DNA of 31,966 nt from an uncultured Thermococci archaeon (GTDB lineage Archaea; Methanobacteriota_B; Thermococci; Methanofastidiosales; SZ-28-30), in contig CAZFAR010000002.1 of assembly GCA_964516825.1 (NCBI GenBank), positions 1-31,966 on the forward strand, written 5' to 3'. The position numbers and the translations under genes are program-made. The notes beneath the pieces are model-generated. The model saw only the letters and a program-made list of their open reading frames with translations. It made no database searches and was not told the DNA's origin. This document shows, in pieces, positions 565-24,263 of the stretch. Numbering within the stretch: position 1 is the stretch's first letter; each line of letters begins with the position of its first letter.

Positions 565-3500
565 CTATTGAAGATCTTCAAGTATACTCTTGTATATCTC
601 AATTGCTTTCAGGGCCCAGTAGACTGCGTCTGTATATTCTCTGTCGTCAAACAGGGCCTTCGCCTTGAGGAGATATGAATTTGCCAGTTCAAAGCGCTCC
701 AGTATATCCTCTGGAACCTCTTGTGAGTTGATGATTTCCTCCACCTGGTACTTCAATGCTGACGCATCTTTGATAGCCTGTCTGGCAAGCTCGCCCACGA
801 CACCCATCAGCGCTCCGCCTTGGGATTTGCCGCCATCTTGCGATTTTCCGCCTCCCTGTGTCGCGCTAAGCAGAGCGTTGACAACCAGAGTTACATTCTT
901 TGTATGGGTGATTCCGTGACCTGTACCTGATATGACCAGGGGATACGAGCCAACTGGAGTAGTGACTGCTGTGTTCACCGTCAAGACAGATGCCCCTGCT
1001 GGTACAACTGGGTTCACTGAGAAGTTTGCTGTCGCACCTGAAGGCAGTCCTGTTACTGAGAGCGTTACCGGATATGAGAATCCATTGATAGATCCTACAT
1101 TAATATTGTAGATTGCTGTACCTCCTTGAACCAGACTGTAACTTGAGGGGTCTACAGATAGTGAGAAATCTCCTGCTACATACAGTGTTACCACAACGTA
1201 GTGAGATTTTGCTCCTCCTGCAGCAGAGACAGTCAGAGTATAGTATCCCATGGGAGTATTCTGGGTAGCATACACGGTAAGAGTTGATGTAGCCGTAGTC
1301 TGAGTTGTAGTCAGTGATAGTGTTGATGGGTTGAATGTTGGTGCTGATTCACCATTTCCTGTAGGATGTCCTGATACTGCGAGGTTTATTGTTCCTGTAA
1401 ATCCATTGAGAGCCTGGACAGTTACCGTATACTGAGCACTTCCTCCTCCTGCTGCTATCTGCTTGTTTGGCGGGCTTACCGACAACGAGAAGTCTCCTTC
1501 TACTCCGGGTGGGGGCGCCTGGAATTCGAAGTCCACGTTTTCAGTTGTCATCCTGTAGTTGCATGGTACTGCATTGGCTCCAACGTATGGCTCATGAGCG
1601 AGTGTGCATCCTGTAGACGTCCCTGTTACGTGGTACATACCTGGATGCAGATGTTCTATCCTGTAGTTACCCGTGACATTTGTGGCAGTCTGAGATGAAA
1701 CCCATCCAAAGGTTGACGAGCCTTCATCTCCTCCAAATATCTGCGTTGCACTGATAGATGCTGCAGCACATCCAGAGTCTAGTGTTACTGCACCTGCTAT
1801 TGTACAGAGAGGATCCATTACAATAATGCCTAGAGAGGTTGGGTTTGTGCACTCCACTACTGCGTTGGCTACTGTAACAGCATATCCTGTTTTGAAGAAT
1901 ACCAGTGTCCATGCCCATGTGGAGCCTCCCACTATCTGGGCATCTGAAAATGGAACCTTGACGAACTCAAAGTTGCCGGTCGCATTCGTAGTAGTAGTGT
2001 AATCTGAGAGATTCCTGCCATACAGAGAATGCTCTATCCCTGTTGAATGCATATCAGATATTGTAACCTGCACTCCGCTCAAAGGAACACCAAATATGTC
2101 TTGAACCTGTCCTGAAATCGTGCTCGTGCACCTTTTCAGATTCATGGTAGGTGCCTTTGTTTCAACACCAGCAATGACCAAGAGCGGACCTCGTGTAGCT
2201 GTCTCATAGGAGTTTGATCCTACATTTCTTGTAGCATGGACGTAAAGGCTCTGTGAAAAGATATCCACGAACAAGTAGTATCCCTCGCTATCAGTGTAGG
2301 TGATGTTTCCCGCAGGATTCAGCCATACTTTTGCATCGCAGAAACCGTCAGTGAGTTCCAGAGTCACATATCCTGATATACTCCCTGTAATCGGAGGTCC
2401 CACAAGTGCGTACAATCCAAATACACCAGTCCAGTTTGCTCTGAACGGAACACCCCAGAGCCACCAGGACCCCAGATTTATCGTCTGGTGAGTATCCTGA
2501 TAAAGTCTTCTCCCGTAGCCGTATCTGTACGCAGAACCTGTGTGAGTTCCTGTAGGTACATTCAGGATCGTGTAGTAGCCCATCGTGTCTGTCGTAGCTA
2601 CGTGCTTTCCTGAAACCTCTACTGCTGCATCTTCAAGGGGCGACCCCAATGAATCCTGGACATAACCATCTACCCGTCCTTTCTTCTTGTAGCGAACAAC
2701 GTTGTCAGCAGTACTCAAGGGTTGATTCACAGTCACTGGTTTCCCATGGCCTGGGTTACTCTCCAGAGTGAACGTGGTCCAGTAATCTATGCCACATTCT
2801 CCGCCTCCACATATCTTCAGAATGTAACTCCCGTATTCTACATCAGCGAATATGTAGAACCCATTCGTATCTGTTTCGTCTATAGTCTCGATAGGCAGAT
2901 AGATACTCACCTGTGCTCCTGAAACATCATATCCGTCTTCATTCACTACTCTTCCCTTGAGAGCTCCTCTGAACCTTGACATGGGAAATACTGTTGCTCC
3001 TGATGTTCCTGGTGCTCCTGGTACGAAGTTCATGACAGCTAATGGAGCTACATCTGGATTCGCAGCACTTATGTACCCAGACTTTTGAGCACCCAATGTG
3101 GTCGTGAAGATCAGCGGGGGCAAGGATATGTTCTGGATTATGTAGAATCCGTAGGTATCCGTGTATGCTGAGAATCCACCGTATGAGGTTTCCACCAGCA
3201 CGTCCTTGATGCCCTCTCCTGGGTCGAACTGTCCTCCATATGCAGATCCTGGAACATAAGGTGTGTCATCAATGATGTTACCACCACTCTGCCGTACTCT
3301 GTTGGAATACACAAAGCCAGTCACGAAAAGCCCCGGCGGTGTAGAAGGCAATACAATATTTCTTATGGTCACAAGATCCCACTGGACTGCAATTCCTCTA
3401 GACGTTTGAAGTATAGTCCTCAAGATATCTATTGCTGCTGCATCGTAACTCCCCACAGGGACTTCATGCGTCTCATACCATCCATTGCTGTCGAGAGGAA

Positions 3501-5301: not shown

Positions 5302-5411
5302 ATCTCTTTCCTCCTGTTATATGAGTTGATCCCTGATGATCAGAGAACTGATCTTTTAACCTCTTTTGGACTGCAAGCCCAATTGAAGCTTTTAAATCTT
5401 ATGTTCCTATT

Positions 5412-5428
5412 CCTTTATATACTTTTCG
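5412..5428 (-). promoter_or_regulatory. BRE-TATA promoter for the 1578-aa gene
   Basis: Minus strand reads CGAAAAGTATATAAAGG, about 110 bp upstream of the ATG at 5301. Confidence 0.7.
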
Positions 5429-5499
5429 CTTAAGAAAGCTATTTTGTAGGTTTTCCATACATATGAAGAAAGATTTTAGCAGATTTGTTTTTTGTTTTC

Positions 5500-5544
5500 C
5501 TACTATTATAGTAGTTGCTTTTTACTTTACTACTATTATGATAG
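5500..5544. promoter_or_regulatory. Two copies of a near-palindromic operator-like motif CTACTATTATAGTAG / CTACTATTATGATAG
   Basis: Copies at 5500-5514 and 5530-5544, 30 bp apart, both followed by TTGCTT. A related copy lies at 8798-8812. Confidence 0.5.
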
Positions 5545-5637
5545 TTGCTTCATTGAAAGAAGGTATTTCTGAGGTATAGAGTGTATAAGAAATGAAAAAT
5601 GAATAGAAAATGAAATAGATAAAAAAAGGAAAAAGAA

Positions 5638-8472
5638 TCAAACAATGTAGAAGACAGTATTTGATGTAGCTCCTGTGTTATATGGGCTTCCCCTGTAGAC
5701 TGCATAGGCGGAGTGTGGCCCTCGTACTGGTGTGATCCGCAGTGTGGCATAACCATATCTGTTTGTAGTCACTGAGGTCAGGTAGATATTATCCTGATAG
5801 AATGCAATGTTGCACCCTGACAATGGTCTTCCAGCAGAATTGGTAAGGTAAGCTGTCAGGATTATGACGCTTCCCTGCTTGGCGTAGGAAAGAGTCAGGT
5901 TTGCTCCTGATCCTCCCTGGATTGTGAACCTCCAAATTGCAGAATACTGACCACTGCAGGCTCCTTCAGATCTGACTCTCCAGTACCACGTACCACTTGG
6001 AAGGTTCTGAGGTAGCACATAGGCTGTCGCAACTATTCCTGGGTAGGTGAAAGTATTTGCAGTATTGAAGTACCCGGAATCAGATACCTGCAGAGTGTAT
6101 GATGCTGCTGTACCAATCCATGAGAAGGCTACAGGCTGGCTCGAGACTGTGCTGTTGTTTGCAGGAGACAGCAAACTAGGTACTGTACAGACACCCTGAA
6201 CTGTTACTGTATTCGAGGTCGTTACTGGAGACGAGACAGGAGTACCTGTTCCTGAATCTATACCTGAAGCATTTCCGGTAAAACTCAGTGTCCCGTTGCT
6301 TGCTCCTGAATTTGCTGTATACACCCAGATGTAGTTCTGTGAACCAGCTGCTGGAATATTTGCAGAAGCAGGTATTGGTCCAGAAACCAGAGCAGCAGAA
6401 GCTGTTCCTGCAGTATTCACTGTCAATGCTGATGGAGTGACACCGTTAGCCTGTGTCCCCCCAGTATTCTGAACATTCATCGTCACTGTTATCTGCTGTC
6501 CTGAACTCACTGTTGGAGGAGCAGCTGAAATCGATGATACCAGAGCTGAAGGTATTACAGGAGCCGCGAGCGTGAGAGAAGGATCACCATACAGGTTGAA
6601 GTCAAAAAGGTTCATCCATCCCACCCATCCCCAGGGATTGGCCAGAGCATTCTTGCCGTCATACAACGCTTTTCCTGCAGATTCTCCGCTGTTGACCAGA
6701 TGATCTGCATACTCGTACCCGATACCTGCATTGTCAATTATTCCCCAGTTCGACCAGGTAGCCACTGCATACCAGCTTATCCGCGATGCACTCACCGTAC
6801 AGATAGCACCTCTCTTGAGCAGTGCATATCCCAGATTGTTTGGGTTCTCAGGATATCCATTCAGACATGAACAAAGGTAGGCAAAGGTATCAGCATCAAT
6901 CACAGCTCCCGTATCACCGGAAGTGAAGAAAGCAGGTGTAGACAGTTCATCACCTGATGCCCCGCAAAACCAATCTTCTACAACGTTATCACCATCATCT
7001 GCTGCATCTCCCCAGTACTTTCTGTATGCGCCAGTTTGATTCCCATGACCCCACCAGAAGACAATGCCATAGTCATTTGACCACTGGCCAACAACATTTG
7101 CGTTGGTGAGGGGTCCATCATATCCATAAGCAGTCACAGGGACAGGATCATGACCTCTGCCTGTGAAGCCTGAACGTTCGTACATCACGTAGTCAGACCA
7201 CCCATTGGGGCCTGCTATGTTCACAATAACATACTGGGGAAGATCCAACCCATCAGTCCTGATATCGCCATCAGAACATGAATTGCCCTGATTGTGCTCA
7301 TCCTGGTAGTTTGAGATTGCCATTGGAAGCATGATGCTCTGGTTTGCACCATTGTAGTTGATGAATTTGTTTAGAATACTATCCAGGGTAGCGTAGTCTG
7401 ACCCATAGACAGGTACCCTTCCTACGTACACTTCTGGTCCAAAATCCACAGCATCCTGTCCGAACTCTCCATAGAAACCATCACCATCTGAATCCCAGTT
7501 CCCTGTCAGATCAGAGTAGAAGTAGTCAGTAGGGGTTTGATCTGCAGCACTTCCAGGATTAGGCCAGCACATCATCATTGGAACATCCCCGAAACTATCG
7601 CCTGCATTTGCAGGATCATCTGGGTCAGGGTCTCCAATCAGGAGAGCATACTGAAGCTGCAGACTGACGTAGTTTGAAGCCAGCCAGCTCCGAATGTTTA
7701 TCGCCCTCTGCTGCCCTGTAGGTGGACCGTACTGAGTTTCTGTTATTATAGTCACAGTAAACCCTCTCGCCTGCAAATAGGTCACAAAACTGCCCAGGCT
7801 TGAACTTCCACTTAAAATAGCGTTTGTCGTGATGATAGCATATCCTGTCCAGCCTGGAGGAGGAGCTCCTAGTGCCATGGAGAGTCCCTTATTCCATGAA
7901 ATCCCGATTCTCACCTCACGAGTGAGCTGCAATTTCTTAGTAACAGGATTGTACTGCAGTGGTGTAAACTGTATTCTCACCACTTTTCTGTTTCTCTCCT
8001 GATATACCCGTGATATCTCCACTGGAGTTGATGGATAGAATTCATCCTTTCCGTAGATTGCAGTATTCTTTCCCTGGACTATGGTTCCACCATCAGAAGA
8101 TGAAAGTGATCCTGTAGCTGGCAGAGGGGCTGGTGCAATCTCATACTCGCCTGGAAGTATCTCAGAAGTTGCAGAAAGAATCTCCATTTGTACAGTCTCC
8201 AGCTGTGCATCAATGGACAGCTCTACATCGTACGTCTTCTGAGGCAGTTCGGGAGCACCTGGAAGTCCCCTTGTGTAAAACCCTTCCATCTTGACCCTGT
8301 CATACCCACGGATGTTTTCAATAGTATAGGGAGAAGAAACAAGCTTTAGATACTGCGTCCCCGTTTTTCCAGTCCAGCTCGGAGGCTGCGGAGTCGACAT
8401 TATGGGAAGTCCCAGCAGAGAAAGACACAGAATTGCACAGAAAATATAAGAGAAGAACTTTCTAGTCACCAT
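5638..8472 (-). CDS. Secreted gingipain-family (peptidase C25) cysteine protease with propeptide and C-terminal Ig-like domains
   Basis: Signal peptide; C25 propeptide-like GLPGAPELPQKTYDV...YNPV; catalytic-domain motifs YALLIGD, PTDYFYSDL, EVYVGRVP, WWGHG (His), CSCLNG (Cys), FNLYGDPSL. Confidence 0.9.
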   Translation of the reverse strand: MVTRKFFSYIFCAILCLSLLGLPIMSTPQPPSWTGKTGTQYLKLVSSPYTIENIRGYDRVKMEGFYTRGLPGAPELPQKTYDVELSIDAQLETVQMEILSATSEILPGEYEIAPAPLPATGSLSSSDGGTIVQGKNTAIYGKDEFYPSTPVEISRVYQERNRKVVRIQFTPLQYNPVTKKLQLTREVRIGISWNKGLSMALGAPPPGWTGYAIITTNAILSGSSSLGSFVTYLQARGFTVTIITETQYGPPTGQQRAINIRSWLASNYVSLQLQYALLIGDPDPDDPANAGDSFGDVPMMMCWPNPGSAADQTPTDYFYSDLTGNWDSDGDGFYGEFGQDAVDFGPEVYVGRVPVYGSDYATLDSILNKFINYNGANQSIMLPMAISNYQDEHNQGNSCSDGDIRTDGLDLPQYVIVNIAGPNGWSDYVMYERSGFTGRGHDPVPVTAYGYDGPLTNANVVGQWSNDYGIVFWWGHGNQTGAYRKYWGDAADDGDNVVEDWFCGASGDELSTPAFFTSGDTGAVIDADTFAYLCSCLNGYPENPNNLGYALLKRGAICTVSASRISWYAVATWSNWGIIDNAGIGYEYADHLVNSGESAGKALYDGKNALANPWGWVGWMNLFDFNLYGDPSLTLAAPVIPSALVSSISAAPPTVSSGQQITVTMNVQNTGGTQANGVTPSALTVNTAGTASAALVSGPIPASANIPAAGSQNYIWVYTANSGASNGTLSFTGNASGIDSGTGTPVSSPVTTSNTVTVQGVCTVPSLLSPANNSTVSSQPVAFSWIGTAASYTLQVSDSGYFNTANTFTYPGIVATAYVLPQNLPSGTWYWRVRSEGACSGQYSAIWRFTIQGGSGANLTLSYAKQGSVIILTAYLTNSAGRPLSGCNIAFYQDNIYLTSVTTNRYGYATLRITPVRGPHSAYAVYRGSPYNTGATSNTVFYIV

Positions 8473-8473
8473 T

Positions 8474-8611
8474 TCAATGCACCTCCTTGTCCTGGCATCT
8501 TTTTGTCCTCATTCCTGACACTGTTTTGTCTCCAGCATCACGTATCAATTTCATCTGTTTCTTTTCTGCATTTTTTTCCACTTTCAATGCAGTTCGAATT
8601 CTTTTCGTCAC
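8474..8611 (-). CDS. Possible 45-aa basic leader ORF (MTKRIRTALKVEKNAEKKQMKLIRDAGDKTVSGMRTKRCQDKEVH), not in the ORF track
   Basis: AGGAGGT SD 6 nt before a GTG. The TGA stop lies 1 nt before the C25 ATG, and the ORF sits between the promoter and the protease gene. Confidence 0.4.
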   Translation of the reverse strand: MTKRIRTALKVEKNAEKKQMKLIRDAGDKTVSGMRTKRCQDKEVH

Positions 8612-8721
8612 AGAGATACCTCCTTTCCTCAAAATTCTTTCAAACCATCAGACATGTTTACTGATGATCTTCTTTGTTATTTTGAGCTTTTCATTAACTC
8701 TAACAACTAGATAATTACCTG

Positions 8722-9038: not shown

Positions 9039-9209
9039 TCATGCTCGTCCAGAGGCTTGCTCTACGATCATACTGTCTTCAGATTCCTCGAGAACAAAAA
9101 TCACCTTTTCCAGGAAATCCTGCCATGTGGCGCAGCGCAGCTTTCCTTTCCACTCTACAACCTTGAAGTAGAGATTATCTGGTATGTTCTTGAATGTTAT
9201 ATTTTTCAT
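9039..9209 (-). CDS. 56-aa ribbon-helix-helix-like DNA-binding protein, not in the ORF track (MKNITFKNIPDNLYFKVVEWKGKLRCATWQDFLEKVIFVLEESEDSMIVEQASGRA)
   Basis: Hand-translated. GAGGT SD and its own promoter at 9305-9322. An alternating beta-strand (KNITFKNI) + PD turn + two amphipathic helices, as in Arc/CopG/FitA-type RHH proteins. Confidence 0.7.
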   Translation of the reverse strand: MKNITFKNIPDNLYFKVVEWKGKLRCATWQDFLEKVIFVLEESEDSMIVEQASGRA

Positions 9210-12301: not shown

Positions 12302-15300
12302 CTATTCTTTTTTCTTCAACACATCTCTTGGACTGAATTCATCTAGTAAATCGATTTCATTGTTCTTTTCTTCTTCATCTTCCTTTTTTTCTTCCTTTCT
12401 TGATCCTTTGAGAAGCTCTTTGATATCTGGTATCTCGAATTCTTCTTCTTTCTTCTCCCATTTTGGAAGTTCTGATACTGGTTCCTTTCTCTTTTCTACT
12501 TCTTCTTTTCTCACTCCTCTGAGAATTTCTCGAACATCTGTGAATCCTGTTCTCTCTGGCTTCTCTGATTTTTCCTCTTCAAACAGATCTTCAAGGCCCA
12601 GTTCCTCTTTCGTGATGTCCCTCGGCGCAAATTCCCTTTCAAGGCTGAATTCCTCTGACTCTTTACCGAATTCGAACTCTTCAGCCTTTCTGACTCCTGT
12701 TTCTTCTGGTTCCAGTAGCTCATGGACATCTCTGACCTTTGCAACCCTTTCCACTTTCTCTTTCTTCTCCTCAATTGTCTCCCGTCTCCTTCTCAGGACA
12801 TCCAGGGGAGTCACTTCTTCCATTGCTTCTGCCTTTTCTTCAGGGGAGGGCAGAGCTGGCTTCCTGATTTCCTCTTTCCAGATTTCTTTCCCCTCTACAG
12901 GTGTTGGGGGAAGTTCCTCTGGTGCATATGTCTCCTCTTCTGTCCGTCTTCTTTCAATGAGAAGGAAGGCCAGCATCATGCTGATGGCCATGATCAAAAA
13001 GATGATCAAGATCAGGGTAATGTCAAAGGACCTGGCCAGTCTCTGTGCTATTGTTTCCACTGCTTTCTTTGCTTCCTCTGTTGGAATCTTTTTCTCTTCT
13101 TCTGGCGGCTTCATTTCCTCTACTGCAACAGAAACAGGTTCTGACATGGATTCATGCTTATCATTATACACATCGATGAAGGTGGCTTTGGCTGCACCAA
13201 GGTTGAAGCTTCCCTGAGCTGTAGGCTTTAGCGAGTAGGTGAACGTTATTTCTTCTCCTGGGTTCAAGACTCCAATGTTCCAGCTCGTTTCGCCTTCCAG
13301 CACAGTAAACTCCTCGGGGACCCAGTCCTTGACGACTACATTGGTCGCCCTTTCATCATAGGTATTAGTTACCCGGACTGTGATCACGACTGCTTCACCC
13401 ACTTTCAGGGTAGCCATATCTGCAGTCTTTTCTATCAGGATCCCCTTGACCCTCAATAGAGCAGGCTCAGATCCTGCAGTGTAGACAATTTTCCATTTGT
13501 CCTCGTAGGTAGCAGTAGCTGCAGGAAGGAGAAGGCTTCCCACCCGTGTACACAGCATCTCGTAGAGGATCTGGGCAGATTCTCCTGGCTCTAGCTTGCC
13601 TTCCCATTCATTTGTTCCTGATAGGAGTACCATTCCCTCAGGCAAAGGATCGACCAGGTGGGTAATTGCAGGAATTTCGCCCTCGTTGATCACGTTGACT
13701 GCAACCTTGACAGAGAAGTTCAGCTTTACATCGCTTTTCTCCACCACCTTGGTGATCCTCAGATAAGGTTTTTGGGCCTTGACATCGAATTTTCCCTTTC
13801 TTTCTGCAGAATATTCGCGATCAAAATCATCGGAGTAGATTGCATTGAATGTCAGCTCATAGGTTTTGTCCTGGCTGAAATGAGGGACTTTAATCGTGTA
13901 CTTTATCACTAGTTCCTCTCCAATACCTACTTCATCAGCGAACAGGGTAATGCCGCCTCCTTCCTGGAGATAATCAGTAGAAACTTCCAGGAGCTGTGCT
14001 CCTTCAGGTAGAGCTGTCCTTACCTTTATTTCTTTGGCTGAAATCCCCCCCATGTTGGGGAGCGTGAGTATCACAGTGATGTATTCTCCATCTAGATCTA
14101 CCTGCCGTTTGAAACTGTAGTCTATCGTCAGATTGGGAGATTCAGTCTCCGGAATCATTACAGTCTGATCCTCTGCTACTACTTCCTGCTTCACTCCATC
14201 CCCATTCTCATAGGCTATCCTCACTCCCTTGAATGTGTACTTGCCTGCCTTCTCTCCTGCTCTTAGAGTGTACTTCAACAAGATGTACTTTTCTGGCTTC
14301 AGCTCGTCGATGTAGTACCTGATTGTACCTTCTTCCTCTTTCAATCCCTTGGTTTCCAGTTTTTCTACTGTGAAGCCCTCAGGTAAAATATCTACGACCT
14401 GGATGTGTTCTAGGGGATTTGATGTATCATTTTCTACTCTGATGACTACTGTTAAAGTGTCTCCCTTTGCAACAACATCAGAATCGAGTTCACGGTGAAG
14501 TGCTGGACCTGGCTCTGTTATCACCCTTATCTCTGTAGTATTGCTGACAGCCTCATATACATGGCCCCTCTCATCCTTGTAGAAGATTTTACCCTTGAAT
14601 TGATAGATGCCAATCTGTTTTACTTTGATCTTGTAGGTAACTTTGACCACATCTCCAGGCTTTAGAGTACCCATCCATTCTGCATGCCCTTCAATGACTT
14701 CCAGTCCCTGGGGTATCTGATCTATGTAGTGAACCTGCTTTATTTCTTCTTCTGACAGATTCTTGATGAAAGCCACTATAGTTCGCTCCTCACCCACTCG
14801 CATGTCTGCTATTTCTTTTCCTGTTTCTTTTACCACAGACTTGCCTTCGACTATGTTTTTCTGTAGATCAATATTGGCTCTTCTCTGGGGGAGTACATTC
14901 AAGTAAGCAGTTTTTGTGTCTGCTTTAGTTTCCAGTCCATCAGAATAGGTTATCCTCACCTTTATGGGAAATGATGTTTCTTTGGAGACTGAAGGTGCTT
15001 TCATCAAGAAGAGAAGACCTGCCTGTTCTCCAGGGCCGATTTCCAGGATTAGGTGTTTATCCAAATTGTATACCCAGGTCACATCTACTGGATTGAAATC
15101 TGGTGCGTCCAGCTCATAAGCAATTTCAGATGCAGTCCCATCTCCATCATTTCTCAAGAGAACGTGAGCCAGGAAGGTATCATCCGAGTAGATCTGAGAA
15201 ATTCCCGTACTCATGGAAACCTCTTCCAATATGCCCCAGTAAACATTCATGTCTATGTCAGGTTTCACTCTGGTGTGCAAATGGAAACGGGCAGATCTAT

Positions 15301-18300
15301 CCTTTTCATTGAAATCAGTAAATTCAAAGAAGAATTTGTTGTCGTAGAATCTGCTCTCAAATATCTTTATCAAGTAGTTCTCCAGTTTTTCCGCACCTTT
15401 CATCACCTGGGTGAAAACAGCGTCTGTCACCACCTCAGTCACATCTTCAGGAGTGATCTTGTAATCCCCTGATCTCGCAATACCGCCCATTCCCAGGTAC
15501 CGATCCTGTTCTTCTTTGTACAGATCGTAGGTATACACCTTGAGCATGTAGCAGTTGTAAGGAACATCCTCAACAACTACATCGAAATCCAGATAGAATC
15601 TGTCTCCTGCTGTCAACTGGCTCAGCTTGAACACTATTGTATCATCTGCTCCATCTCCATCTGAATCGTAGGTGTTCCATGTGACAAAGGGGTTGGTAGA
15701 GGTTATGGAAAAAGGAAGAAGTGTTGTGTACTGGGGAATTTTGTCAATTATGACGATGTTGAAAGCATCTCCGTAAGGGCCTGAGCCGGTATTAGTCACA
15801 GTGATTAGGTAATGCACAGGACCTGCAGCCTGCACGTAAGGCCCTTCCTTTTCTATTGACATAGTAAGACAGGGCTCCAGTGGTTCAGTGATCTGGGCCA
15901 AGGCAGTTTGAATCCAGGTTTCTGCAATGTTGCTGGTCGTTGTTACAGTAGTACTGCTCAATGGCGGGAAATTGACAATATAGGTGAGATCGGCAGTGTT
16001 GTTAATTCTCCCTGCACTCCCTATGGGTACGAAAACACTGTAGATGCCACGTATGAAAGCTCCAGGGACGACTGGCGATCCTACTCCCTGCCAGGTAACT
16101 GTGTTTGCAGTAATGACAGGAGCCAATCCAGCAGGAGTAACAACATTCTGCGGGTTGGTGGTGGGAGGTGGAATTACATCAGTAATACTAGTCACCAGAG
16201 CAGTAAAGGGTATTGGTGAGAGAGGATCTATAGTGTTGTAGGCAGTGAGCCTGTAGTACAGCCTGCTTCCTGGCAGTATCGTGGGAGCAGGGATTGTACA
16301 TGCCGGGTCCTGAAAAGCTTCTTTTATCAGTTGAGCAGCCTGCACCAATATGGTAACTGAAGGTGCTGTCTGAGTTCTCTGCATTCCCAATTCATAATAG
16401 TAGACAATGGCGCTGTCATTGGTAATGCTGTCTCCAAAATTGACACTTCCATCAGAAAGAACGTCTGCCTGGTAGGTGAGCAGTGTATATCCTGGAGGTA
16501 TTGCAGGGATATTCCAGATTACTGTGTCTCCCGCGTTCCCTATAATGAAATCCCCGTTCGTGTCCTGGATGGCTGCTACTGAACCTGGAGGCAATGGAAA
16601 AAGAGGGGGCGGGGGTGTATGAGGAACCTGTGCATTGATCATCCCTTGAGGAATGTCATCCTGTACCTGTACAGAAACGGGAACACCTGCTCCATTGTAG
16701 ACCTCAAGAAAGAAGATTATTGTATCCCCTGGAACGCAAGTGCCAGAGAAATCCTCATCTGAAATCTGGAAATTTGGCAACAAATCAGGACCTACCTGTA
16801 CCAGCCCTGGAGCTGGATCTAAAGGCGGAACGTATCCTGTAAAGGGAGGTATTCCCTCATATCCCAATCCTGACCAATCTCTTGCATTAGGATTGTATGC
16901 TACCTTCCTGATCTGTACTAATGTCACTTCTGTGTTCCATTCAGCCATTTCCCAGGGCTGCTCCTCATATGCAGTCAAGTCCGTAGGATTGCCTTTCAAA
17001 TCCTCGTACTTGAGAACCACATTGTTCAGTAAGTCGCGAATAGGCATACATATGTCTACTAGAATCTTCTCAAATCGCGGGACATACTGATCATTTTTTG
17101 GATAGAAGTCGCATGTACCGAGGGGTCTGTGCCTGTCCAGCTCGTCAAATACAATCTGGAAGTCTCTCATTCCGTAGGGGAATACTGCAGGACTTGCAAT
17201 GAGTTCAGAATCCACCTCTCTCACGAATTTGAGGTAGACCTTTTCGTTTTCCAATTCAATCTTTTCTACAATAATGGCGAAATCAGAAAGGCCTATCTCG
17301 TATTCTTCAGGAAATATAATGTTGTTCTCAAAGTGATCATCACATGCGAAGTAGAAAACAGTGTACATTTTCTCGTCTGGATCAAGAGCATCTGTATTGA
17401 AAAGGTGGGTGTCTTCGTCTATGAACAATCGAGCTACAATGATCTGTTCACAATCAATGGTTTCAATCTGATAAACGTGGATCAGCTCCACACGAATATC
17501 CTTCTCTGTTCCATCAGGATACTTTCTCCTGTAGATATGGAATGAGTATTCTTCCTCTTTCTGATCATAGGGTACGATCAGGGCTTTTCCATAATCAGTC
17601 TCAAAAAGGACTAGCTCATTGTTGTTTCTGATCATCAGGTAGTATGGATCAAAGCTTACGAGCTGACGATACAGCTTGGACATTTCGTCAAGCGCAGTGT
17701 AGTAGTAGGCGGTAGTACCGTCTATGTTGTCGGGAAGCCCTCTGCGTTCCACAGTGTGAAGAAAGAAGTTTTCATACAGTAAATCATATTTCTCGTGCAT
17801 GTAGATTTGCAGCTTGGCATAGTGGGTGATGTCAGCAATGTAGCATCCTTCGCATCGCGGCAACGTCGTGTGCAAAGTTTCCCTGAAGAACCCTTGGAAG
17901 TTGAAGACAATCCGAGCGAATTCATCCTCATACCATGCAGTATCTCCCACGATTTCACAGCGTTCACACTCCTCCAGCCTTAAGAGAAGGATCAGCTTCT
18001 GATTATCTGTAAGGGTGGTCATAGCCTTCAAGGCAGGATGTTGAAACACTCTGGGAGGAGACGCAGGGTGGATGTACTCCTGATAGTCGATCTCTTTGTA
18101 TACAGGAATAGGCAGTTCATACATTTTTTTGTATATCTTTAGGGCCAGCTTCTTTGTAATGGAGCGATCCCTGTTCATTCCTAACCACTCATCAGGATCT
18201 ACTGCACCGTTGAATTCTCCTGGCAGATTGTTTTGAGGATTCAGATCTGTGTTCTTTCCTTCATGCCACTCTCCAATATCAAATACACCATTCCCATTCA

Positions 18301-18820
18301 AATCTGTCAGCTCATTCAGATCTACAATGCCATTCCCATTCCAATCTGTCCATTCACCGTACTCCCTGATATTGTTCCCATTCTCGTCAAACCACTCAAT
18401 AGCTTCAACAATGAAGTTGCCGTTTAAATCCTTCCATTCTCCAGCATCAATGATGAGATCATGCTCAAAATCATATACTACTACCAGGTAAAGGTCGTTC
18501 GGCCCCAGGAATATCAATTGACCTCCAGACATCCCAAGAGGGAAGAAACTGGAGATTGAGGGGCTCTGCATTACACTGCCGTCTGGTGCAAGCGGGAAGT
18601 AGTCTGGAGGATTCTCCAAGTACACAGCTGCATGCCATTCGTTGGGCTCTGTCCGATAAGAGCGAGTCAGATCAATGAGCACCTGTCCCAGATGCTCTTC
18701 CAGTATTACTATGCTGTCATCGTAAGCCAAGTACGGAGGGACTGCACTTTCCTCTTGTGTCTCTATCTGTGCTGCTACCACGAACAGGAGCATTGCTACA
18801 GCAAGGGCCCTCCTCATCAA
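12302..18820 (-). CDS. 2172-aa membrane-anchored surface protein: signal peptide, DxNGN Ca-binding-like repeats, multiple DUF11/BatD/S-layer-like beta-sandwich repeats, one TM helix, highly charged cytoplasmic tail
   Basis: Signal peptide MMRRALAVAMLLFVVAA. Repeated 'I.K......(V/L)..GE...I.(V/I).V.N.......V.V.D.(I/L)PEG..(V/L)..G...W.G.L.PGE....Y.(I/L)'. TM segment ITLILIIFLIMAISMMLAFLLI near 12955-13020, followed by about 215 E/K/R-rich residues. Confidence 0.8.
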   Translation of the reverse strand: MMRRALAVAMLLFVVAAQIETQEESAVPPYLAYDDSIVILEEHLGQVLIDLTRSYRTEPNEWHAAVYLENPPDYFPLAPDGSVMQSPSISSFFPLGMSGGQLIFLGPNDLYLVVVYDFEHDLIIDAGEWKDLNGNFIVEAIEWFDENGNNIREYGEWTDWNGNGIVDLNELTDLNGNGVFDIGEWHEGKNTDLNPQNNLPGEFNGAVDPDEWLGMNRDRSITKKLALKIYKKMYELPIPVYKEIDYQEYIHPASPPRVFQHPALKAMTTLTDNQKLILLLRLEECERCEIVGDTAWYEDEFARIVFNFQGFFRETLHTTLPRCEGCYIADITHYAKLQIYMHEKYDLLYENFFLHTVERRGLPDNIDGTTAYYYTALDEMSKLYRQLVSFDPYYLMIRNNNELVLFETDYGKALIVPYDQKEEEYSFHIYRRKYPDGTEKDIRVELIHVYQIETIDCEQIIVARLFIDEDTHLFNTDALDPDEKMYTVFYFACDDHFENNIIFPEEYEIGLSDFAIIVEKIELENEKVYLKFVREVDSELIASPAVFPYGMRDFQIVFDELDRHRPLGTCDFYPKNDQYVPRFEKILVDICMPIRDLLNNVVLKYEDLKGNPTDLTAYEEQPWEMAEWNTEVTLVQIRKVAYNPNARDWSGLGYEGIPPFTGYVPPLDPAPGLVQVGPDLLPNFQISDEDFSGTCVPGDTIIFFLEVYNGAGVPVSVQVQDDIPQGMINAQVPHTPPPPLFPLPPGSVAAIQDTNGDFIIGNAGDTVIWNIPAIPPGYTLLTYQADVLSDGSVNFGDSITNDSAIVYYYELGMQRTQTAPSVTILVQAAQLIKEAFQDPACTIPAPTILPGSRLYYRLTAYNTIDPLSPIPFTALVTSITDVIPPPTTNPQNVVTPAGLAPVITANTVTWQGVGSPVVPGAFIRGIYSVFVPIGSAGRINNTADLTYIVNFPPLSSTTVTTTSNIAETWIQTALAQITEPLEPCLTMSIEKEGPYVQAAGPVHYLITVTNTGSGPYGDAFNIVIIDKIPQYTTLLPFSITSTNPFVTWNTYDSDGDGADDTIVFKLSQLTAGDRFYLDFDVVVEDVPYNCYMLKVYTYDLYKEEQDRYLGMGGIARSGDYKITPEDVTEVVTDAVFTQVMKGAEKLENYLIKIFESRFYDNKFFFEFTDFNEKDRSARFHLHTRVKPDIDMNVYWGILEEVSMSTGISQIYSDDTFLAHVLLRNDGDGTASEIAYELDAPDFNPVDVTWVYNLDKHLILEIGPGEQAGLLFLMKAPSVSKETSFPIKVRITYSDGLETKADTKTAYLNVLPQRRANIDLQKNIVEGKSVVKETGKEIADMRVGEERTIVAFIKNLSEEEIKQVHYIDQIPQGLEVIEGHAEWMGTLKPGDVVKVTYKIKVKQIGIYQFKGKIFYKDERGHVYEAVSNTTEIRVITEPGPALHRELDSDVVAKGDTLTVVIRVENDTSNPLEHIQVVDILPEGFTVEKLETKGLKEEEGTIRYYIDELKPEKYILLKYTLRAGEKAGKYTFKGVRIAYENGDGVKQEVVAEDQTVMIPETESPNLTIDYSFKRQVDLDGEYITVILTLPNMGGISAKEIKVRTALPEGAQLLEVSTDYLQEGGGITLFADEVGIGEELVIKYTIKVPHFSQDKTYELTFNAIYSDDFDREYSAERKGKFDVKAQKPYLRITKVVEKSDVKLNFSVKVAVNVINEGEIPAITHLVDPLPEGMVLLSGTNEWEGKLEPGESAQILYEMLCTRVGSLLLPAATATYEDKWKIVYTAGSEPALLRVKGILIEKTADMATLKVGEAVVITVRVTNTYDERATNVVVKDWVPEEFTVLEGETSWNIGVLNPGEEITFTYSLKPTAQGSFNLGAAKATFIDVYNDKHESMSEPVSVAVEEMKPPEEEKKIPTEEAKKAVETIAQRLARSFDITLILIIFLIMAISMMLAFLLIERRRTEEETYAPEELPPTPVEGKEIWKEEIRKPALPSPEEKAEAMEEVTPLDVLRRRRETIEEKKEKVERVAKVRDVHELLEPEETGVRKAEEFEFGKESEEFSLEREFAPRDITKEELGLEDLFEEEKSEKPERTGFTDVREILRGVRKEEVEKRKEPVSELPKWEKKEEEFEIPDIKELLKGSRKEEKKEDEEEKNNEIDLLDEFSPRDVLKKKE

Positions 18821-19191
18821 TTCTCACCCTCAACCTTCCAGTGCTTTGCTATCTGAAGCACAGTTTGGAGAAATTCCATGAAATCATCAGAAAGCATCCA
18901 GGTGCCGTCTCTCTTGTAGATCAATCCTGATCCTCTCAATTTCTTGATAATAGAATCATACTGGCCTCTGGTGATAGATGTTTCTGCACAGAAATGTTCC
19001 CACTGACTGTCATCGACCCCCTGGTTTTCCTTAATGAACTCCAGGAACTTCATGGCAGGCTCAGAAAGCTCCGGTTTCCTCCAGAAAATGCATTTGAGTA
19101 CTGCTTTCATGCTTTCTCCGACTCCATCTACAGGTCTGAGAAGGAATGTTGTTTCATACTTTGCTTCACTAATATTTCTTTTCATTGTCAT
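18817..19191 (-). CDS. 124-aa protein with a probable winged-helix C-terminus, translationally coupled to the 2172-aa gene
   Basis: 4-nt stop/start overlap at 18817-18820. ITRGQYDSIIKKLRGSGLIYKRDGTWMLS resembles a recognition helix plus wing. Consensus promoter about 25 bp upstream. Confidence 0.65.
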   Translation of the reverse strand: MTMKRNISEAKYETTFLLRPVDGVGESMKAVLKCIFWRKPELSEPAMKFLEFIKENQGVDDSQWEHFCAETSITRGQYDSIIKKLRGSGLIYKRDGTWMLSDDFMEFLQTVLQIAKHWKVEGEN

Positions 19192-19214: not shown

Positions 19215-19230
19215 TATATAAATCTTTCGG
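19215..19230 (-). promoter_or_regulatory. BRE-TATA promoter CCGAAAGATTTATATA for the wHTH/surface-protein operon
   Basis: Canonical archaeal BRE+TATA, positioned for a near-leaderless transcript starting at 19191. Confidence 0.8.
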
Positions 19231-19298
19231 TAAGAAAGGATGAATTACCAACTATTCTCATAGTAGATTATCAGGGTTGAGCTAATACTGTACGGGAA

Positions 19299-19322
19299 GG
19301 AGGTGTTGAAGGAGGTGTTGAA
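19299..19322 (+). repeat. Tandem 12-bp repeat GGAGGTGTTGAA x2
   Basis: Exact duplication in the divergent intergenic region. Confidence 0.7.
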
Positions 19323-19393
19323 TCAGGTGGAATTGATTCCTTTTGGGATCACTCATCCGGTAGCTATTTAAACATAAGACTGTTTTTCTAATC

Positions 19394-20704
19394 ATGGCTT
19401 ATTATCCTGCGCTAAGTGAAGATATCTATTTTGGAGTAGCCAAATTTCCACAGGGTTCACTGGTGAAAATTAGGAACACTTCGACACAAAGGGAATTCAA
19501 ATCCACACCTGCGACTGTTGACTTGCTCAGTCTCTGTTCCGGCACCAGAAGCGTGGCAGACATTATTCACTTCCTCTCACAGCAATCTGGCGAACCAGTT
19601 GAATCATTGACTCTTGAGGTGGAGAGGATTTTGGAAAAACTCCAGGTAAGAGGAATCATCAGCCTCAATGAGACCCCTCATGCGGGGCCTTGTGTCAAGA
19701 GAATAAAGGTGAAGTACCCTCTCCAGTTTGCCCAGGTTGAAATTACCAACAGGTGCAATCTTTCATGCATACACTGCTTCAACGACTCAGGGGATCCGCA
19801 TCCTCACGAGTTGACAACAGCAGAGATACTCTCCACTATCGATGTCATCTCCTTGATGGGCGCAGATAGCATCGTGATAACTGGCGGTGAGCCTCTGATG
19901 CATCCCGATCTCTTTGAGATTGTGGAACATGCCAGGAAAGCCCCCATGACCGTCTCAATATTCACTAATGGCACCCTGATGACAGAAGAGCATGTAAGGA
20001 AGTTCAGAGCATTGAATGTCAGAGGATTCAATATTAGCATTGACAGCGTAGATGAGAACATTCACGATACATTCAGAGGACAGAAGGGAGCATTAAGAAA
20101 GACATTGAAAGCTGTTCAGTTGCTAAGAGAAGCAGGGTTTCAAATCAAGATATCTGTTTCCTTGTGTCAGAACAACAAGAACCGTGTGGTTGAAATACTG
20201 CAGTACTTCAAAGAGAACAGTCTAACGAGTTTTGGATTTATGCCTGTCACCTCATCAGGGAGAGGCATTGAGGGTCTGGCCATTTCTCCGGAAGAGTGCT
20301 ACTATATCTGGGTGGAACTGCTTACGTACCTCAAGGAAGAATTCCCTGAGGCTCTTACTGCAATAAGGGGAGACATGGCAGAGACATGCAGCATAGCCAG
20401 AGATCTCATCGGCATCAAATCTGATGGTACCATTATCCCCTGTCCGGGGTGTAGCAGATCATTGGGTGTGGGGAATGTGAGAAATGTGAATCTTGAGGAG
20501 TTCTGGGATAGAAATGCAACTCTCGAAGCCCTCAGACAGATAACAGTGAAAGAAGATGAAAAGTGCAAGGAATGCGTGTATCTTACGTTCTGCGTGGGAT
20601 GCATTGCATCTGCTCACACCACAAGCGGAGAACTCAAACGTTACTACCCCTACTTGTGTGCTTCACGCAGAGCATATGATGAGGTCATAGGACTGACAAA
20701 GTGA
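19394..20704 (+). CDS. Radical SAM/SPASM peptide maturase with a fused N-terminal PqqD-like RiPP recognition element (RRE)
   Basis: N-terminal TVDLLSLCSGTRSVADIIHFLSQQSG...EVERILEKLQVRGII (PqqD-like wHTH). CNLSCIHC (CxxxCxxC), ITGGEPLMH, FTNGTL, SIDS. SPASM region CSIARDLIGIKSDGTIIPC...GNV...CKECVYLTFCVGC...YLC. Confidence 0.92.
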   Translation: MAYYPALSEDIYFGVAKFPQGSLVKIRNTSTQREFKSTPATVDLLSLCSGTRSVADIIHFLSQQSGEPVESLTLEVERILEKLQVRGIISLNETPHAGPCVKRIKVKYPLQFAQVEITNRCNLSCIHCFNDSGDPHPHELTTAEILSTIDVISLMGADSIVITGGEPLMHPDLFEIVEHARKAPMTVSIFTNGTLMTEEHVRKFRALNVRGFNISIDSVDENIHDTFRGQKGALRKTLKAVQLLREAGFQIKISVSLCQNNKNRVVEILQYFKENSLTSFGFMPVTSSGRGIEGLAISPEECYYIWVELLTYLKEEFPEALTAIRGDMAETCSIARDLIGIKSDGTIIPCPGCSRSLGVGNVRNVNLEEFWDRNATLEALRQITVKEDEKCKECVYLTFCVGCIASAHTTSGELKRYYPYLCASRRAYDEVIGLTK

Positions 20705-20768
20705 ATCCACCATAATCTATTCCATCTTTGTGTACCGTATCGACGATCTGTGATCTGTCATACTTATG

Positions 20769-20784
20769 AAAAAAGAAAAAAAGG
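20769..20784 (-). terminator. U-rich archaeal terminator after the 34-aa precursor-like ORF
   Basis: Minus-strand run of T's (CCTTTTTTTTCTTTTTT) a few nt after the TAG at 20791. Confidence 0.55.
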
Positions 20785-20790
20785 AAATCT

Positions 20791-20895
20791 CTAACCAAAG
20801 AATGCGAAGCCAGGCCCCACATAGATACCATCAATGTAACAAGAAATGGGGTGCTTCGGGGTTACTTCTTCAAGTTCTTCGATTTCGAAATCCAT
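20791..20895 (-). CDS. 34-aa putative RiPP precursor peptide MDFEIEELEEVTPKHPISCYIDGIYVGPGFAFFG, not in the ORF track
   Basis: Hand-translated. GAGGTGA SD 6 nt upstream, own consensus promoter at 20930-20944 and T-tract terminator. Acidic leader plus Cys/aromatic/Gly-rich core. Lies 86 bp from the 3' end of the RRE-rSAM gene. Confidence 0.8.
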   Translation of the reverse strand: MDFEIEELEEVTPKHPISCYIDGIYVGPGFAFFG

Positions 20896-20929
20896 GTTTC
20901 TCACCTCGCTTTTATTCTGTGTACTAATC

Positions 20930-20944
20930 TTATAAATCTTTCGG
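20930..20944 (-). promoter_or_regulatory. BRE-TATA promoter CCGAAAGATTTATAA for the precursor peptide
   Basis: First 14 nt identical to the 19215-19230 promoter; about 35 bp upstream of the ATG. Confidence 0.8.
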
Positions 20945-21074
20945 TTTCGTTCGTTGTCTTGTTGCACATTTTCTTGTCAAATACTATATTTGATGTATTG
21001 AAAATATAGGGTCACCCACAACCTACTCCTCAGCCAAAGCTTGAAGAAGCCTGTAACAGATCAAGACCGATTGA

Positions 21075-21608
21075 CTACTCTTTTCTCACTGCAAAGAGCT
21101 GATGGCAGTGAGGGCACTTATAGGTACCTGGTCTTGTTATTGAGAGCCGAGCTTTGCAGGAAGGACAGACAATATTCTTCTTCTCTCTCTTCTTGACATC
21201 TTCCTCTCTGATCAATCTGCCGTCTGGATACCATATGGGGAACTGTTTGCATCGAAATGGATCGGCCTGCCAGGGATGTTCTCCCTCGAATTCTTGCCGA
21301 TTCAGCGTGGGATGCTCCTTGCCGCAGTAGGGACAGGTCACCAAAGAGTACTCCTTCCAGAACCAAAAAGCTTCCTTCACTGTACGAGAGGGAGCACATT
21401 CCGTGCATATCAGGCGATCAATTTTCCTGCACCAGCAGATCTGCTCAAAAAAGTGTGGCTTTCTGCAATGATCACACACAAATATATCATCATCATCCCA
21501 GGCGTGCCATGTACATCTACCTGATGTCTTACCAAAGACTGCATCCCGTGGGGGATATGATTTGTCCACAGTTCCCGTGATTTTACAGGTGAAACATTCC
21601 ATAGTCAA
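21075..21608 (-). CDS. Cys-rich multi-zinc-finger/zinc-ribbon protein (177 aa), coupled to mer
   Basis: Six CxxC pairs (CFTC, CDHC, CTEC, CPYC, CPSC, CPHC) plus further Cys/His. 4-nt overlap with the upstream gene stop. Confidence 0.7.
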   Translation of the reverse strand: MTMECFTCKITGTVDKSYPPRDAVFGKTSGRCTWHAWDDDDIFVCDHCRKPHFFEQICWCRKIDRLICTECAPSRTVKEAFWFWKEYSLVTCPYCGKEHPTLNRQEFEGEHPWQADPFRCKQFPIWYPDGRLIREEDVKKREKKNIVCPSCKARLSITRPGTYKCPHCHQLFAVRKE

Positions 21609-22867: not shown

Positions 22868-22883
22868 CCGAAAGATTTATATA
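22868..22883 (+). promoter_or_regulatory. Orphan consensus promoter CCGAAAGATTTATATA pointing toward the 3' end of pan
   Basis: 16/16 identical to the 19215-19230 promoter; no substantial plus-strand ORF follows. Confidence 0.6.
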
Positions 22884-23057
22884 CTATTGATTAATTGTAT
22901 CAGTGCGCCATATCCTTTTCTTTTTTTCTCTTTTTCAATGGACTATCAAAAGCACAATAAATGATAATAGCAGCAATAGAACAACAATAAAGAGCATTGG
23001 TGAAATGGTACGTGTCAAGAAAAGCTGAAGAGCATCAGAACGCAAGGCATATACAGA

Positions 23058-24263
23058 CTATCCATAGATCAATCCAGAATCAGCATCCTTCTCTTCATAA
23101 GATCCCAATACCTTTTCACATGCATTGATGAGATCTTCTTCTTCTATGCAATCTCTCTTTTCCCGTATGGCAAACATTCCTGCTTCTGTACAGATAGCTT
23201 TCAAGTCTGCTCCTGAAGCATTTTCTGCTGCTTCTGCTATTTCTTCGAGATTCACATTGTGCAAGTTCATATTCTTGGTATGAATCTTCAGAATCTCCAG
23301 CCTGCCTTTCTTACCAGGCAGGGGCACCTCGATCAATCGATCAAACCGGCCTGGCCTTAAGAGAGCAGGATCCAGAATATCTGGTCTGTTGGTGGCAGCC
23401 AGCACTTTCACATTTCCTTTAGGATCGAACCCATCCATTTCGGACAAAAGCTGCATCATAGTGCGGTGCACCTCTCTGTCACCTGAGACCTCTGAATCAA
23501 AGCGCTTGGAACCTATGGCATCGATTTCATCAATGAAAATGATGCTGGGATTCTTCTCTCTTGCGAGCTGGTATACTTCCCTGACGATGCGCGCACCTTC
23601 CCCAATGAATTTGCGGACAAATTCAGATCCCACCACTTTGATGAAGGTGGATTCTGTCTCACAAGCCACTGCTTTTGCTAACTGGGTCTTTCCGTTTCCT
23701 GGAGGACCGTACAGAAGAATACCTGAAGGCGGATCAATGCCCACCCTTTCAAAAAGCTCAGGATGCTTCAATGGAAGCTCAACTGTCTCTCTGATCTCCT
23801 CAATTTGCTGTTCCAGTCCGCCAATATCCTTGTACGTTACATCAGGCTTCTGTACAATCTCCATGCTAGTTACTGCTCGATCTCTGCTGAAGGGGAGGAC
23901 TTCAATAATGGAGAGTGTTCTCTGATTCATAGCGACCCTGCAGCCTACTACAATGTCTCTTGTACTGACGAAATGGGAGACATTCACCACATAGTTTGGA
24001 CCAGAAGAACTCTTGACTACCACTCTCCCGTCCACCAGCACATCTTCCACGACTGCAGTGATCAGTGGAGGGGACCTGAGGCGATCCAGTTCTTTCCGCA
24101 ATTCCATGTTCTCACGTTCCAGCCGAACAAGTTCAGTCTCTGTATTGCGTTTCTGCAGCTCCAGGCTCTTGATACGTCTCTGAAGATTCCTCAAGTACGT
24201 TTCTGTTTCGACGTGATCTGCTTCACGCCTGTCCGCATCCTCATACCTCACCTGAGATGACAT
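23058..24263 (-). CDS. pan: Proteasome-activating nucleotidase (AAA+ ATPase)
   Basis: N-terminal coiled coil, OB domain ([24 protein letters not shown]), GPPGNGKT, pore loop [38 protein letters not shown]-terminal HbYX (IYG). Confidence 0.97.

Follow-up and report, generated by a model that had tools for sequence, protein, structure and literature searches.

A radical SAM-SPASM enzyme and an opposite-strand 34-residue peptide as a putative RiPP module of an uncultured Theionarchaea/Methanofastidiosia-type archaeon

A contig of 31,966 nucleotides from an uncultured Thermococci archaeon (GenBank CAZFAR010000002.1, analyzed over its full length and called the window here) carries two neighboring genes that resemble the maturase and precursor of a peptide made on the ribosome and modified after translation (RiPP). 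The larger gene (19394..20704, + strand) is an open reading frame (ORF) of 436 amino acids and encodes an enzyme of the radical S-adenosylmethionine (SAM) type with an N-terminal RiPP recognition element (RRE) and a C-terminal SPASM domain. The smaller gene (20791..20895, − strand), separated from the stop codon of the first by 86 nucleotides (20705-20790), consists of 34 codons plus a stop and encodes the peptide MDFEIEELEEVTPKHPISCYIDGIYVGPGFAFFG. Orthologues of this peptide were found at two other loci, L081 and L089, which also carry the two closest relatives of the enzyme (65-67% identity). We consider it very probable that enzyme and peptide are a RiPP maturase and its precursor.

Assignment of the maturase draws on Pfam and NCBIfam profiles, homologues, an AlphaFold2 model, and Foldseek comparisons. 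Pfam detected Radical_SAM (E = 3.3e-31), SPASM (E = 1.3e-7; residues 332-394), and PqqD (E = 9.2e-4; residues 43-89). The PqqD match of the window enzyme, at 19.9 bits, lies under the gathering score of 23.4; among 20 members of the maturase clade, PqqD was detected in 18 (best E = 3.4e-8) and SPASM in all. Invariant in a 20-sequence enzyme alignment (A1) are the CX3CX2C radical SAM cluster motif (C121/C125/C128; 19754..19777, +), the residues G164, G165, E166, and P167 (GGEP, of which GGE is the SAM-binding motif), and seven cysteines of the SPASM domain (C332/C350/C391/C394/C400/C403/C422; 20387..20659, +). The PqqD-like RRE spans approximately residues 1 to 92 (19394..19669, +). In the AlphaFold2 model (mean predicted local distance difference test score, 85.2; predicted template modeling score, 0.87), strands at residues 4-7, 11-18, 21-28, and 33-35 precede helices at 39-47, 54-65, and 69-85. 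As modeled, residues 1 to 92 thus have the topology of an RRE, β-strands plus three helices, and are followed by the radical SAM barrel and then by a C-terminal cluster domain. Upstream of the maturase ATG, at a distance of 21 nucleotides, lies a putative TATA-like element, ATTTAAA (19366..19372, +); the maturase mRNA is probably leaderless.

About 50 full-length homologues are 47-67% identical to the maturase, and the next tier stands at 33-36%; the names attached to homologues are Theionarchaea and Candidatus Methanofastidiosia. When solved structures were searched by sequence, SkfB was the best relative (1.7e-23); anSME also matched (2e-11), as did, weakly, CteB (6.9e-6). Foldseek against the PDB ranked SkfB (7.7e-19) ahead of SuiB (2.2e-16) and anSME (2.6e-14). 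The SuiB alignment is full length, covering 469 columns and including the RRE, and the anSME match covers the core and SPASM domain (template modeling score of ∼0.7 on the target; root mean square deviation of ∼4.3 Å). Among NCBIfam models the lowest E-value belonged to AhbD (2e-46). We rejected an AhbD/NirJ (heme/heme d1) identity: the match, at 159 bits, stays far under the cutoff of 500, it is limited to residues 115-301, which leaves the RRE unexplained, and the genomic context does not fit. The best NCBIfam matches reaching back into the RRE were the sactisynthases StsB (E = 1.3e-44; 152.8 bits, cutoff 625; enzyme residues 64-423) and AlbA (116.6 bits, cutoff 850); SkfB scored 88.8 bits (cutoff 300). 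PqqE (90.9 bits, cutoff 381) and MftC (114.5 bits, cutoff 265) were likewise rejected as identities, coverage and context also speaking against them. No NCBIfam equivalog cutoff was approached, and the enzyme scores below the cutoffs of the characterized sactisynthase families AlbA, SkfB, and StsB, so its chemistry is not transferable by homology. The architecture, that of an RRE-dependent radical SAM-SPASM peptide maturase, is established.

The precursor gene has a full set of expression signals. A Shine-Dalgarno sequence, GAGGTGA (20901..20907, −), lies 5 nucleotides before the ATG, with GAGGTG also upstream of both orthologues. Farther upstream is an archaeal transcription factor B recognition element (BRE)/TATA promoter element, CGAAAGATTTATAA (20930..20943, −), of which TTTATAA is invariant upstream of the L081 and L089 genes. 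Eight nucleotides past the stop codon lies an oligo-T tract, T7-C-T6 (20769..20782, −), that resembles an archaeal terminator; T-rich tracts follow the orthologues too. The promoter element consists of the 13-mer CGAAAGATTTATA plus A. This 13-mer occurs in three exact copies in the window and, with up to two mismatches, eight times, against 0.79 expected from shuffled sequences, and its enrichment marks CGAAAGATTTATA as the strong promoter consensus of the source organism.

Over the first 29 codons, the window gene differs from the L081 precursor by 11 synonymous and 5 nonsynonymous changes (4/2/14 across the three codon positions) and from the L089 precursor by 14 and 4 (3/2/17). At Ser18 the codon switches between the TCT and AGC families among these precursors. 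This substitution pattern shows purifying selection on the peptide. The 34-codon ORF is a real gene, far beyond chance: orthologous enzymes stand next to its homologues, and most of its substitutions are synonymous and fall at the third codon position. An alternative reading of 58 amino acids from a GTG at 20967 was rejected: it would place the TATA box inside the gene, and all homologues begin at an ATG preceded by GAGGTG. A preliminary description of this locus, made from the sequence alone, had proposed a radical SAM/SPASM gene with a fused PqqD-like RRE and, 86 bp away on the opposite strand, a complete expression unit for a 34-residue peptide; domains, promoter, Shine-Dalgarno sequence, T-tract, and translation were all confirmed, the last exactly as first read. 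Its further statement that the peptide is unannotated and below the ORF-caller cutoff was not confirmed; the 34-residue product is a called gene in the protein collection (P0121) and several homologues are called as "hypothetical protein."

Is the pairing of enzyme and peptide conserved? Ten loci (L001, L081, L084, L086, L088, and L133 to L137) were retrieved through the enzyme protein alone, and their six-frame ORFs were searched with a hidden Markov model (HMM) of the peptide. At eight of the ten, a canonical peptide, with a leader ending in P-K-H-P, is encoded 35-260 bp from the enzyme, and at the remaining two a degenerate acidic-leader ORF takes this place: MTMTFELLELGVVKPLGCDDDIPGIKFM at L001 (353-442, −) and MYTNAEIEEFSIEVEQCMCLDECSPPFVGLTP at L135 (5418-5516, −). 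All ten loci thus have, within 35-260 bp, a small acidic-leader ORF on the strand opposite the enzyme, and the prediction, set beforehand, that peptide homologues would track with this radical SAM clade was borne out. When all close-clade enzymes were considered (49-100% identity to that of the window), the 18 distinct adjoining peptides were all encoded opposite to the enzyme, with nine pairs convergent and the other nine divergent. The opposite-strand, separately transcribed layout is therefore a fixed trait of this enzyme clade, and not the unusual arrangement that the preliminary description had taken the convergent layout to be. No homologues of the other neighbors of the window maturase were found in 58 related loci, which leaves the maturase and precursor genes as the only conserved unit. 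At one locus, L136, a single close-clade enzyme is flanked by two precursor genes (3772-3894, −, and 5364-5483, −), one divergent and one convergent, with related cores (SCWSGGPPGFVP and SCSDFGPAGFTP).

The window peptide belongs to a larger family, here called the PKHP family, in which a near-invariant leader precedes highly variable cores. In the window the leader comprises codons 1-16 (MDFEIEELEEVTPKHP; 20848..20895, −) and the core codons 17-34 (ISCYIDGIYVGPGFAFFG; 20794..20847, −), the latter corresponding to the region that is hypervariable family-wide. E6, L8, E9, E10, P13, K14, H15, and P16 are invariant in a 46-sequence alignment (A3), and conservation reaches at least 90% at V11 and at the first Cys. 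Scanning metagenomes for the leader pattern [LI]E[ED]VxPKHP gave 44 loci, whose contig names suggest estuarine sediment metagenomes, some labeled SMTZ; one metagenome-assembled genome, JADDYB01, has at least six leader-family loci. A search of called proteins, seeded by an alignment headed by the 58-residue extended ORF, gave 65 family members, all unnamed or "hypothetical" and none with a Pfam domain. When 1.84 billion cluster representatives were searched exhaustively with a profile, 67 clusters were recovered at E ≤ 1e-3; all are tiny PKHP peptides, some with an over-called start, and no longer proteins appeared as false positives. As a negative control, we used 79 distant radical SAM-SPASM genes (from bacteria, ANME-1, Woesearchaeota, and others) recovered by a contig scan with the enzyme alignment and generic radical SAM patterns, a scan that yielded one close relative, L001. 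The peptide HMM had zero matches at E ≤ 1 in the 608 kb (24,309 ORFs) around these 79 genes.

Pooled, the family comprises 120 distinct cores, which are 8-24 residues long with a median of 14 and over which the leader consensus M-[DE]-F-x-I-E-E-L-E-E-V-x-P-K-H-P is near-invariant. Cys is present in 115 of the cores (96%), exactly one in 86 of them; the first Cys lies 0-7 residues after KHP, and within 0-2 residues in 90. The window counterpart, Cys19 (codon TGT, 20839..20841, −), represents the sole core residue conserved family-wide and is the proposed crosslink donor; its conservation favors a Cys-based crosslink. The preliminary description had placed the leader at FEIEELEE-x-x-P, a stretch that does fall within the leader but is only part of the 16-residue block running through the invariant P-K-H-P. 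The core motifs it had singled out, C-x-x-D, Y-I-D, and Y-V-G, are present but not family-wide: they and the C-x-x-D spacing are kept only within three window-class cores (the window, L081 MDLAIEELEEVAPKHPVSCYIEGIYVGPGFAG, and L089 MEFAIEELEEVTPKHPISCYIDGIYIGAGFELP), which have SCYI[DE]GIY[VI]G[PA]GF in common and whose third residue after Cys is D, D, or E. Its view that the core lies outside any characterized family stands. The precursor has no Pfam match, no NCBIfam model matches any of the 46 aligned peptides, and a literature search found no description of a PKHP-leader family. The two-gene module is best read as a new RiPP family of the Theionarchaea/Methanofastidiosia.

Different core classes accompany different enzymes behind the same leader. 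The dominant class, with the motif C-[SA]-S-K-P-x-[KR], comprises 52 distinct cores, and CS[SA]KP occurs in none of the 18 peptides adjoining close-clade enzymes, many of whose cores have a G-[FY]-x-P-like C terminus. Precursors of the CSSKP class were found in three settings: beside SPASM enzymes 26-35% identical to that of the window, usually on the same strand (L097, L114, L127, L131, and L081b); beside a B12-binding radical SAM enzyme and a MatE exporter (L115; peptide at 4992-5126, +); and with no radical SAM gene within 1.5 kb (L106, L112, L113, L117, and L130). About 13 leader-family members in all have no radical SAM gene within that distance. These distributions show that core class co-varies with enzyme clade, as judged from the aligned peptides and their neighbors, and the occurrence of the same leader beside several maturase types suggests one leader common to the substrates of several maturases.

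Our preferred reading, which we hold to be likely, is that the two genes are a RiPP module that stands on its own, in an uncultured Theionarchaea/Methanofastidiosia-type archaeon, with a thioether from Cys19 as the most likely outcome. The 34-residue peptide would be translated from its own short transcript, and its acidic leader, residues 1-16 ending in P-K-H-P, would be bound by the N-terminal PqqD-like RRE. The enzyme would then crosslink the 18-residue core by means of a 5′-deoxyadenosyl radical and two auxiliary Fe-S clusters, closing one thioether macrocycle in which the Cys19 sulfur is bonded to a carbon atom of a residue downstream. Candidate acceptors are a C-alpha (sactionine type) or Asp22 (ranthionine type), the latter position being D or E in the three window-class members. 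Leader removal and export would presumably follow; the window locus encodes nothing for either. A thioether is the most parsimonious product, because Cys is the only residue conserved over otherwise unrelated cores and because the nearest characterized enzymes by full-length HMM, sequence, and structure are thioether-forming sactisynthases. The D/D/E series three residues after Cys would suit a ranthionine-type acidic acceptor in the window class, although it is not general in the clade.

Thioether chemistry taken on its own is nevertheless a tentative assignment, which we rate slightly short of even, and several observations count against our preferred reading. The maturase scores so far below the StsB and AlbA cutoffs (153 against 625 bits and 117 against 850) that their chemistry cannot be carried over by homology. 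SPASM enzymes of the same architecture form C-C, C-O, and C-S bonds or epimerize residues. Cys is kept also beside quite different radical SAM clades, beside B12-dependent radical SAM enzymes, and in orphan peptides, so it could serve a family-wide step, such as processing. Cys is missing from five of the 120 cores, the close clade has no conserved acidic acceptor, and no protease or exporter for the peptide was found in the 32-kb window.

The strongest rival keeps the RiPP module but assigns the enzyme an aromatic C-C or C-O crosslink, either a triceptide cyclophane or a streptide-like bond involving, for example, Tyr20 of Y-I-D or Tyr25 of Y-V-G, with Cys retained for another purpose. SuiB, a C-C crosslinker, is the best full-length structural match, both tyrosines are kept in the three window-class cores, and in most close-clade cores an aromatic residue follows Cys by 1-6 positions and the ending is G-[FY]-x-P-like. 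We nonetheless regard this rival as a minority possibility, given that within the close clade the position of aromatic-x-x motifs is not conserved, whereas 96% of cores contain Cys, and that the top 25 NCBIfam matches include no cyclophane, StrB, or XyeB-type family.

Oxidation of the conserved Cys to formylglycine or another oxidized species, without any crosslink, would fit the strong structural match to anSME over core and SPASM, the sequence match at 2e-11, and the single Cys as the one feature common to the cores. However, anSME lacks an RRE, and its targets are folded sulfatase motifs, C-x-P/A-x-R, which are absent here, while the N-terminal RRE and the leader/core organization point to a crosslinking RiPP maturase; we judge this explanation improbable. 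Still less credible is a redox cofactor precursor of the PqqA/PqqE or MftA/MftC kind. PqqE and MftC follow the same RRE(PqqD)-radical SAM-SPASM logic and both appear among the HMM and structure matches, but they match at only 91 of 381 and 115 of 265 bits, the reactive residues of such precursors are conserved and each genome encodes one copy (against 120 cores and at least six loci in JADDYB01 here), and no PqqB/C or MftB/D/E-type genes lie nearby in the window. That the small ORF is a chance ORF, a noncoding element, or an unrelated small protein such as a regulator is equally remote, and chance is effectively refuted: it has only 34 codons and no database annotation or domain, and some 13 relatives lie away from radical SAM genes, but its divergence is mostly synonymous with a Ser codon-family switch, its promoter and ribosome-binding site are conserved, and the family comprises 67 independent clusters with no longer-protein false positives, strict enzyme adjacency in otherwise unrelated contexts, and zero negative-control matches.

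The genomic surroundings show the window to hold a minimal, stripped-down form of the module. L081 (2891-4693, +) and L089 (6863-8671, −) have an orthologous B12-binding radical SAM gene of about 600 amino acids, 76% identical between the two, directly upstream of the RRE-radical SAM gene on the same strand; no trace of it was found in the window. In the L082 and L083 assemblies, this gene is split in two. L089 further encodes an Rce1-like CPBP protease, methyltransferases, and an MFS transporter, and L081 a second radical SAM enzyme, two CSSKP-class precursors (8547-8660, −, and 9074-9184, −), and a MatE exporter. The preliminary description's remark that no protease or exporter is adjacent is therefore true of the window but not of its relatives, whose clusters have MatE, MFS, and CPBP protease genes as well as B12-dependent radical SAM enzymes.

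Surrounding genes in the window look unrelated to peptide maturation. They include a 124-amino-acid ORF with no family match (18817-19191, −), with an exact copy of the precursor's BRE/TATA 13-mer in front of it (19217-19229), a DUF11 surface protein, a Zn-ribbon ORF (21075-21608), a mer-like gene of the luciferase family, and the PAN proteasomal ATPase (23058-24263). PAN and the mer-like gene, together with the type of promoter and the names attached to the enzyme's homologues, speak for an archaeal source. We rejected a role for the 124-residue ORF, the Zn-ribbon ORF, the mer-like gene, and the 2,172-residue surface protein, none being conserved beside related modules; a Peptidase_C25 gene about 11 kb away was considered as leader peptidase and found to be without support. 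Very large secreted or surface proteins are clustered at 565-8472 (−) and 12302-18820 (−). The cluster includes a 1,578-residue protein with CarboxypepD_reg repeats, a 944-residue gingipain-like Peptidase_C25 protein with a propeptide, and the 2,172-residue DUF11 protein, which has an acidic, Lys/Glu-rich C-terminal tail past a predicted membrane helix. At the window edge (10-552, +) is a stand-alone TIR-domain protein (TIR_2, 1.8e-32; ThsB_TIR-like match) that could be defense related. In the divergent intergenic region between the 124-residue ORF and the radical SAM gene, GAAGGAGGTGTT is repeated perfectly in tandem and the similar GAATCAGGTGGA comes next (19296-19319, +), with no ORF start; it could be a regulator-binding site or a set of Shine-Dalgarno-like repeats. 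The third exact copy of the BRE/TATA 13-mer (22869-22881, +) points into the 460 bp that separate PAN from the mer-like gene. It is followed by a T-tract (22917-22937) and an 8-codon ORF, MDYQKHNK (22939-22965), with no convincing ORF, and may mark an unannotated small RNA or micropeptide. Scans of the whole window for tRNAs and Rfam families were empty.

What is new here is the precursor family, its restriction to one uncultured archaeal lineage, and its fixed opposite-strand layout; the RRE-radical SAM-SPASM enzyme with a leader/core substrate is itself a well-known system. We see a real, though lesser, chance that the chemistry or the shared-leader logic will prove new. A bolder proposal would make PKHP-leader peptides the first archaea-specific radical SAM RiPP class, with one 16-residue leader as a universal handle for at least three radical SAM types (two SPASM clades 27-35% identical and the B12-dependent enzymes) and with the window-type enzyme installing an undescribed crosslink on the single Cys near the leader junction. 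We view this proposal as less likely than not; if true, the lineage would maintain a natural combinatorial peptide library, with the window as its minimal two-gene unit. By the account of a 2025 survey, two haloarchaeal lanthipeptides had until then been the only validated archaeal RiPPs; the survey added further lanthipeptides, and archaeal radical SAM RiPPs have so far been rule-based, antiSMASH-level predictions (PMC12144867). The module described here offers a very small test system, with one enzyme, one 34-residue substrate, and at least 120 natural substrate variants behind one invariant leader. It could reveal the chemistry of archaeal SPASM enzymes on peptides and the sharing of leaders among maturases, and could show whether modified peptides serve uncultured sediment archaea (Theionarchaea/Methanofastidiosia) in signaling or competition. 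PKHP precursor genes are easily missed because they are small, and the search key [LI]-E-[ED]-V-x-P-K-H-P can be used to annotate them.

Two kinds of archaeal system invite direct comparison. The published bioinformatic predictions of radical SAM-modified peptides in archaea are antiSMASH ranthipeptide and sactipeptide calls (PMC12144867), that is, rule-based enzyme calls without a defined precursor family, whereas the PKHP family consists of defined precursors for which no bacterial counterpart was found in the control. Thermococcus has a subtilosin-like sboA-albA cluster, according to a 2026 preprint (bioRxiv 10.64898/2026.07.27.741052); this cluster is a clear homologue of a bacterial bacteriocin system and is unrelated to the PKHP family.

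Among characterized enzymes, the sactisynthases SkfB, AlbA (subtilosin A), and StsB (streptosactin) come closest. As in the window, an RRE leads into a radical SAM barrel and a C-terminal auxiliary Fe-S domain, and a small peptide serves as substrate, headed by an N-terminal leader and bearing its Cys donor at the core's N-terminal end, although in our system the donor role of Cys is putative. SkfB, which acts on the sporulation killing factor, forms a single Cys-to-Met thioether (PMC6231123). It is ∼21% identical to the window maturase in the Foldseek alignment and has a Twitch domain rather than a full SPASM domain. The cutoffs of the sactisynthase families lie 4-7 times above the scores of the window maturase. 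The leaders are unrelated, and our system differs further in its archaeal host, in a precursor that is always on the opposite strand, and in a window locus without an ABC transporter, protease, or immunity gene.

SuiB, which makes streptide (KxxxW), has the same full-length RRE-radical SAM-SPASM fold and a short precursor peptide. It is 17% identical to the window maturase, and our family, in which Cys is the conserved residue, has neither K-x-x-x-W nor another aromatic motif that is conserved. In streptococci, SuiB is encoded in a same-strand operon with a transporter/protease. Ranthipeptide maturases (CteB for SCIFF; PapB for freyrasin) likewise combine a radical SAM-SPASM enzyme with an RRE, and they form Cys thioethers to non-alpha carbons. 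The C-Y-I-[D/E] of the window class is reminiscent of the C-x-x-x-D motifs of PapB, the enzyme of the Cys-Asp thioethers of freyrasin, whose scope has been described (PMC12373016). SCIFF precursors, however, are Cys-rich, with six Cys, compared with one Cys in 86 of 120 cores here, and in our clade an acidic acceptor is not conserved. No NCBIfam peptide model, SCIFF included, matches the 46 peptides, and the top 25 enzyme matches do not include the SCIFF maturase.

In its overall organization, finally, the PKHP family recalls the Nif11 and NHLP leader peptides (prochlorosins and proteusins). It differs from them in its leader, which has 16 residues and an unrelated sequence, in its partners, which are radical SAM enzymes of several clades rather than LanM, and in its confinement to one archaeal lineage. 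Common to both are a single conserved leader in front of many hypervariable cores and several unlinked copies per genome, some of them far from any maturase.

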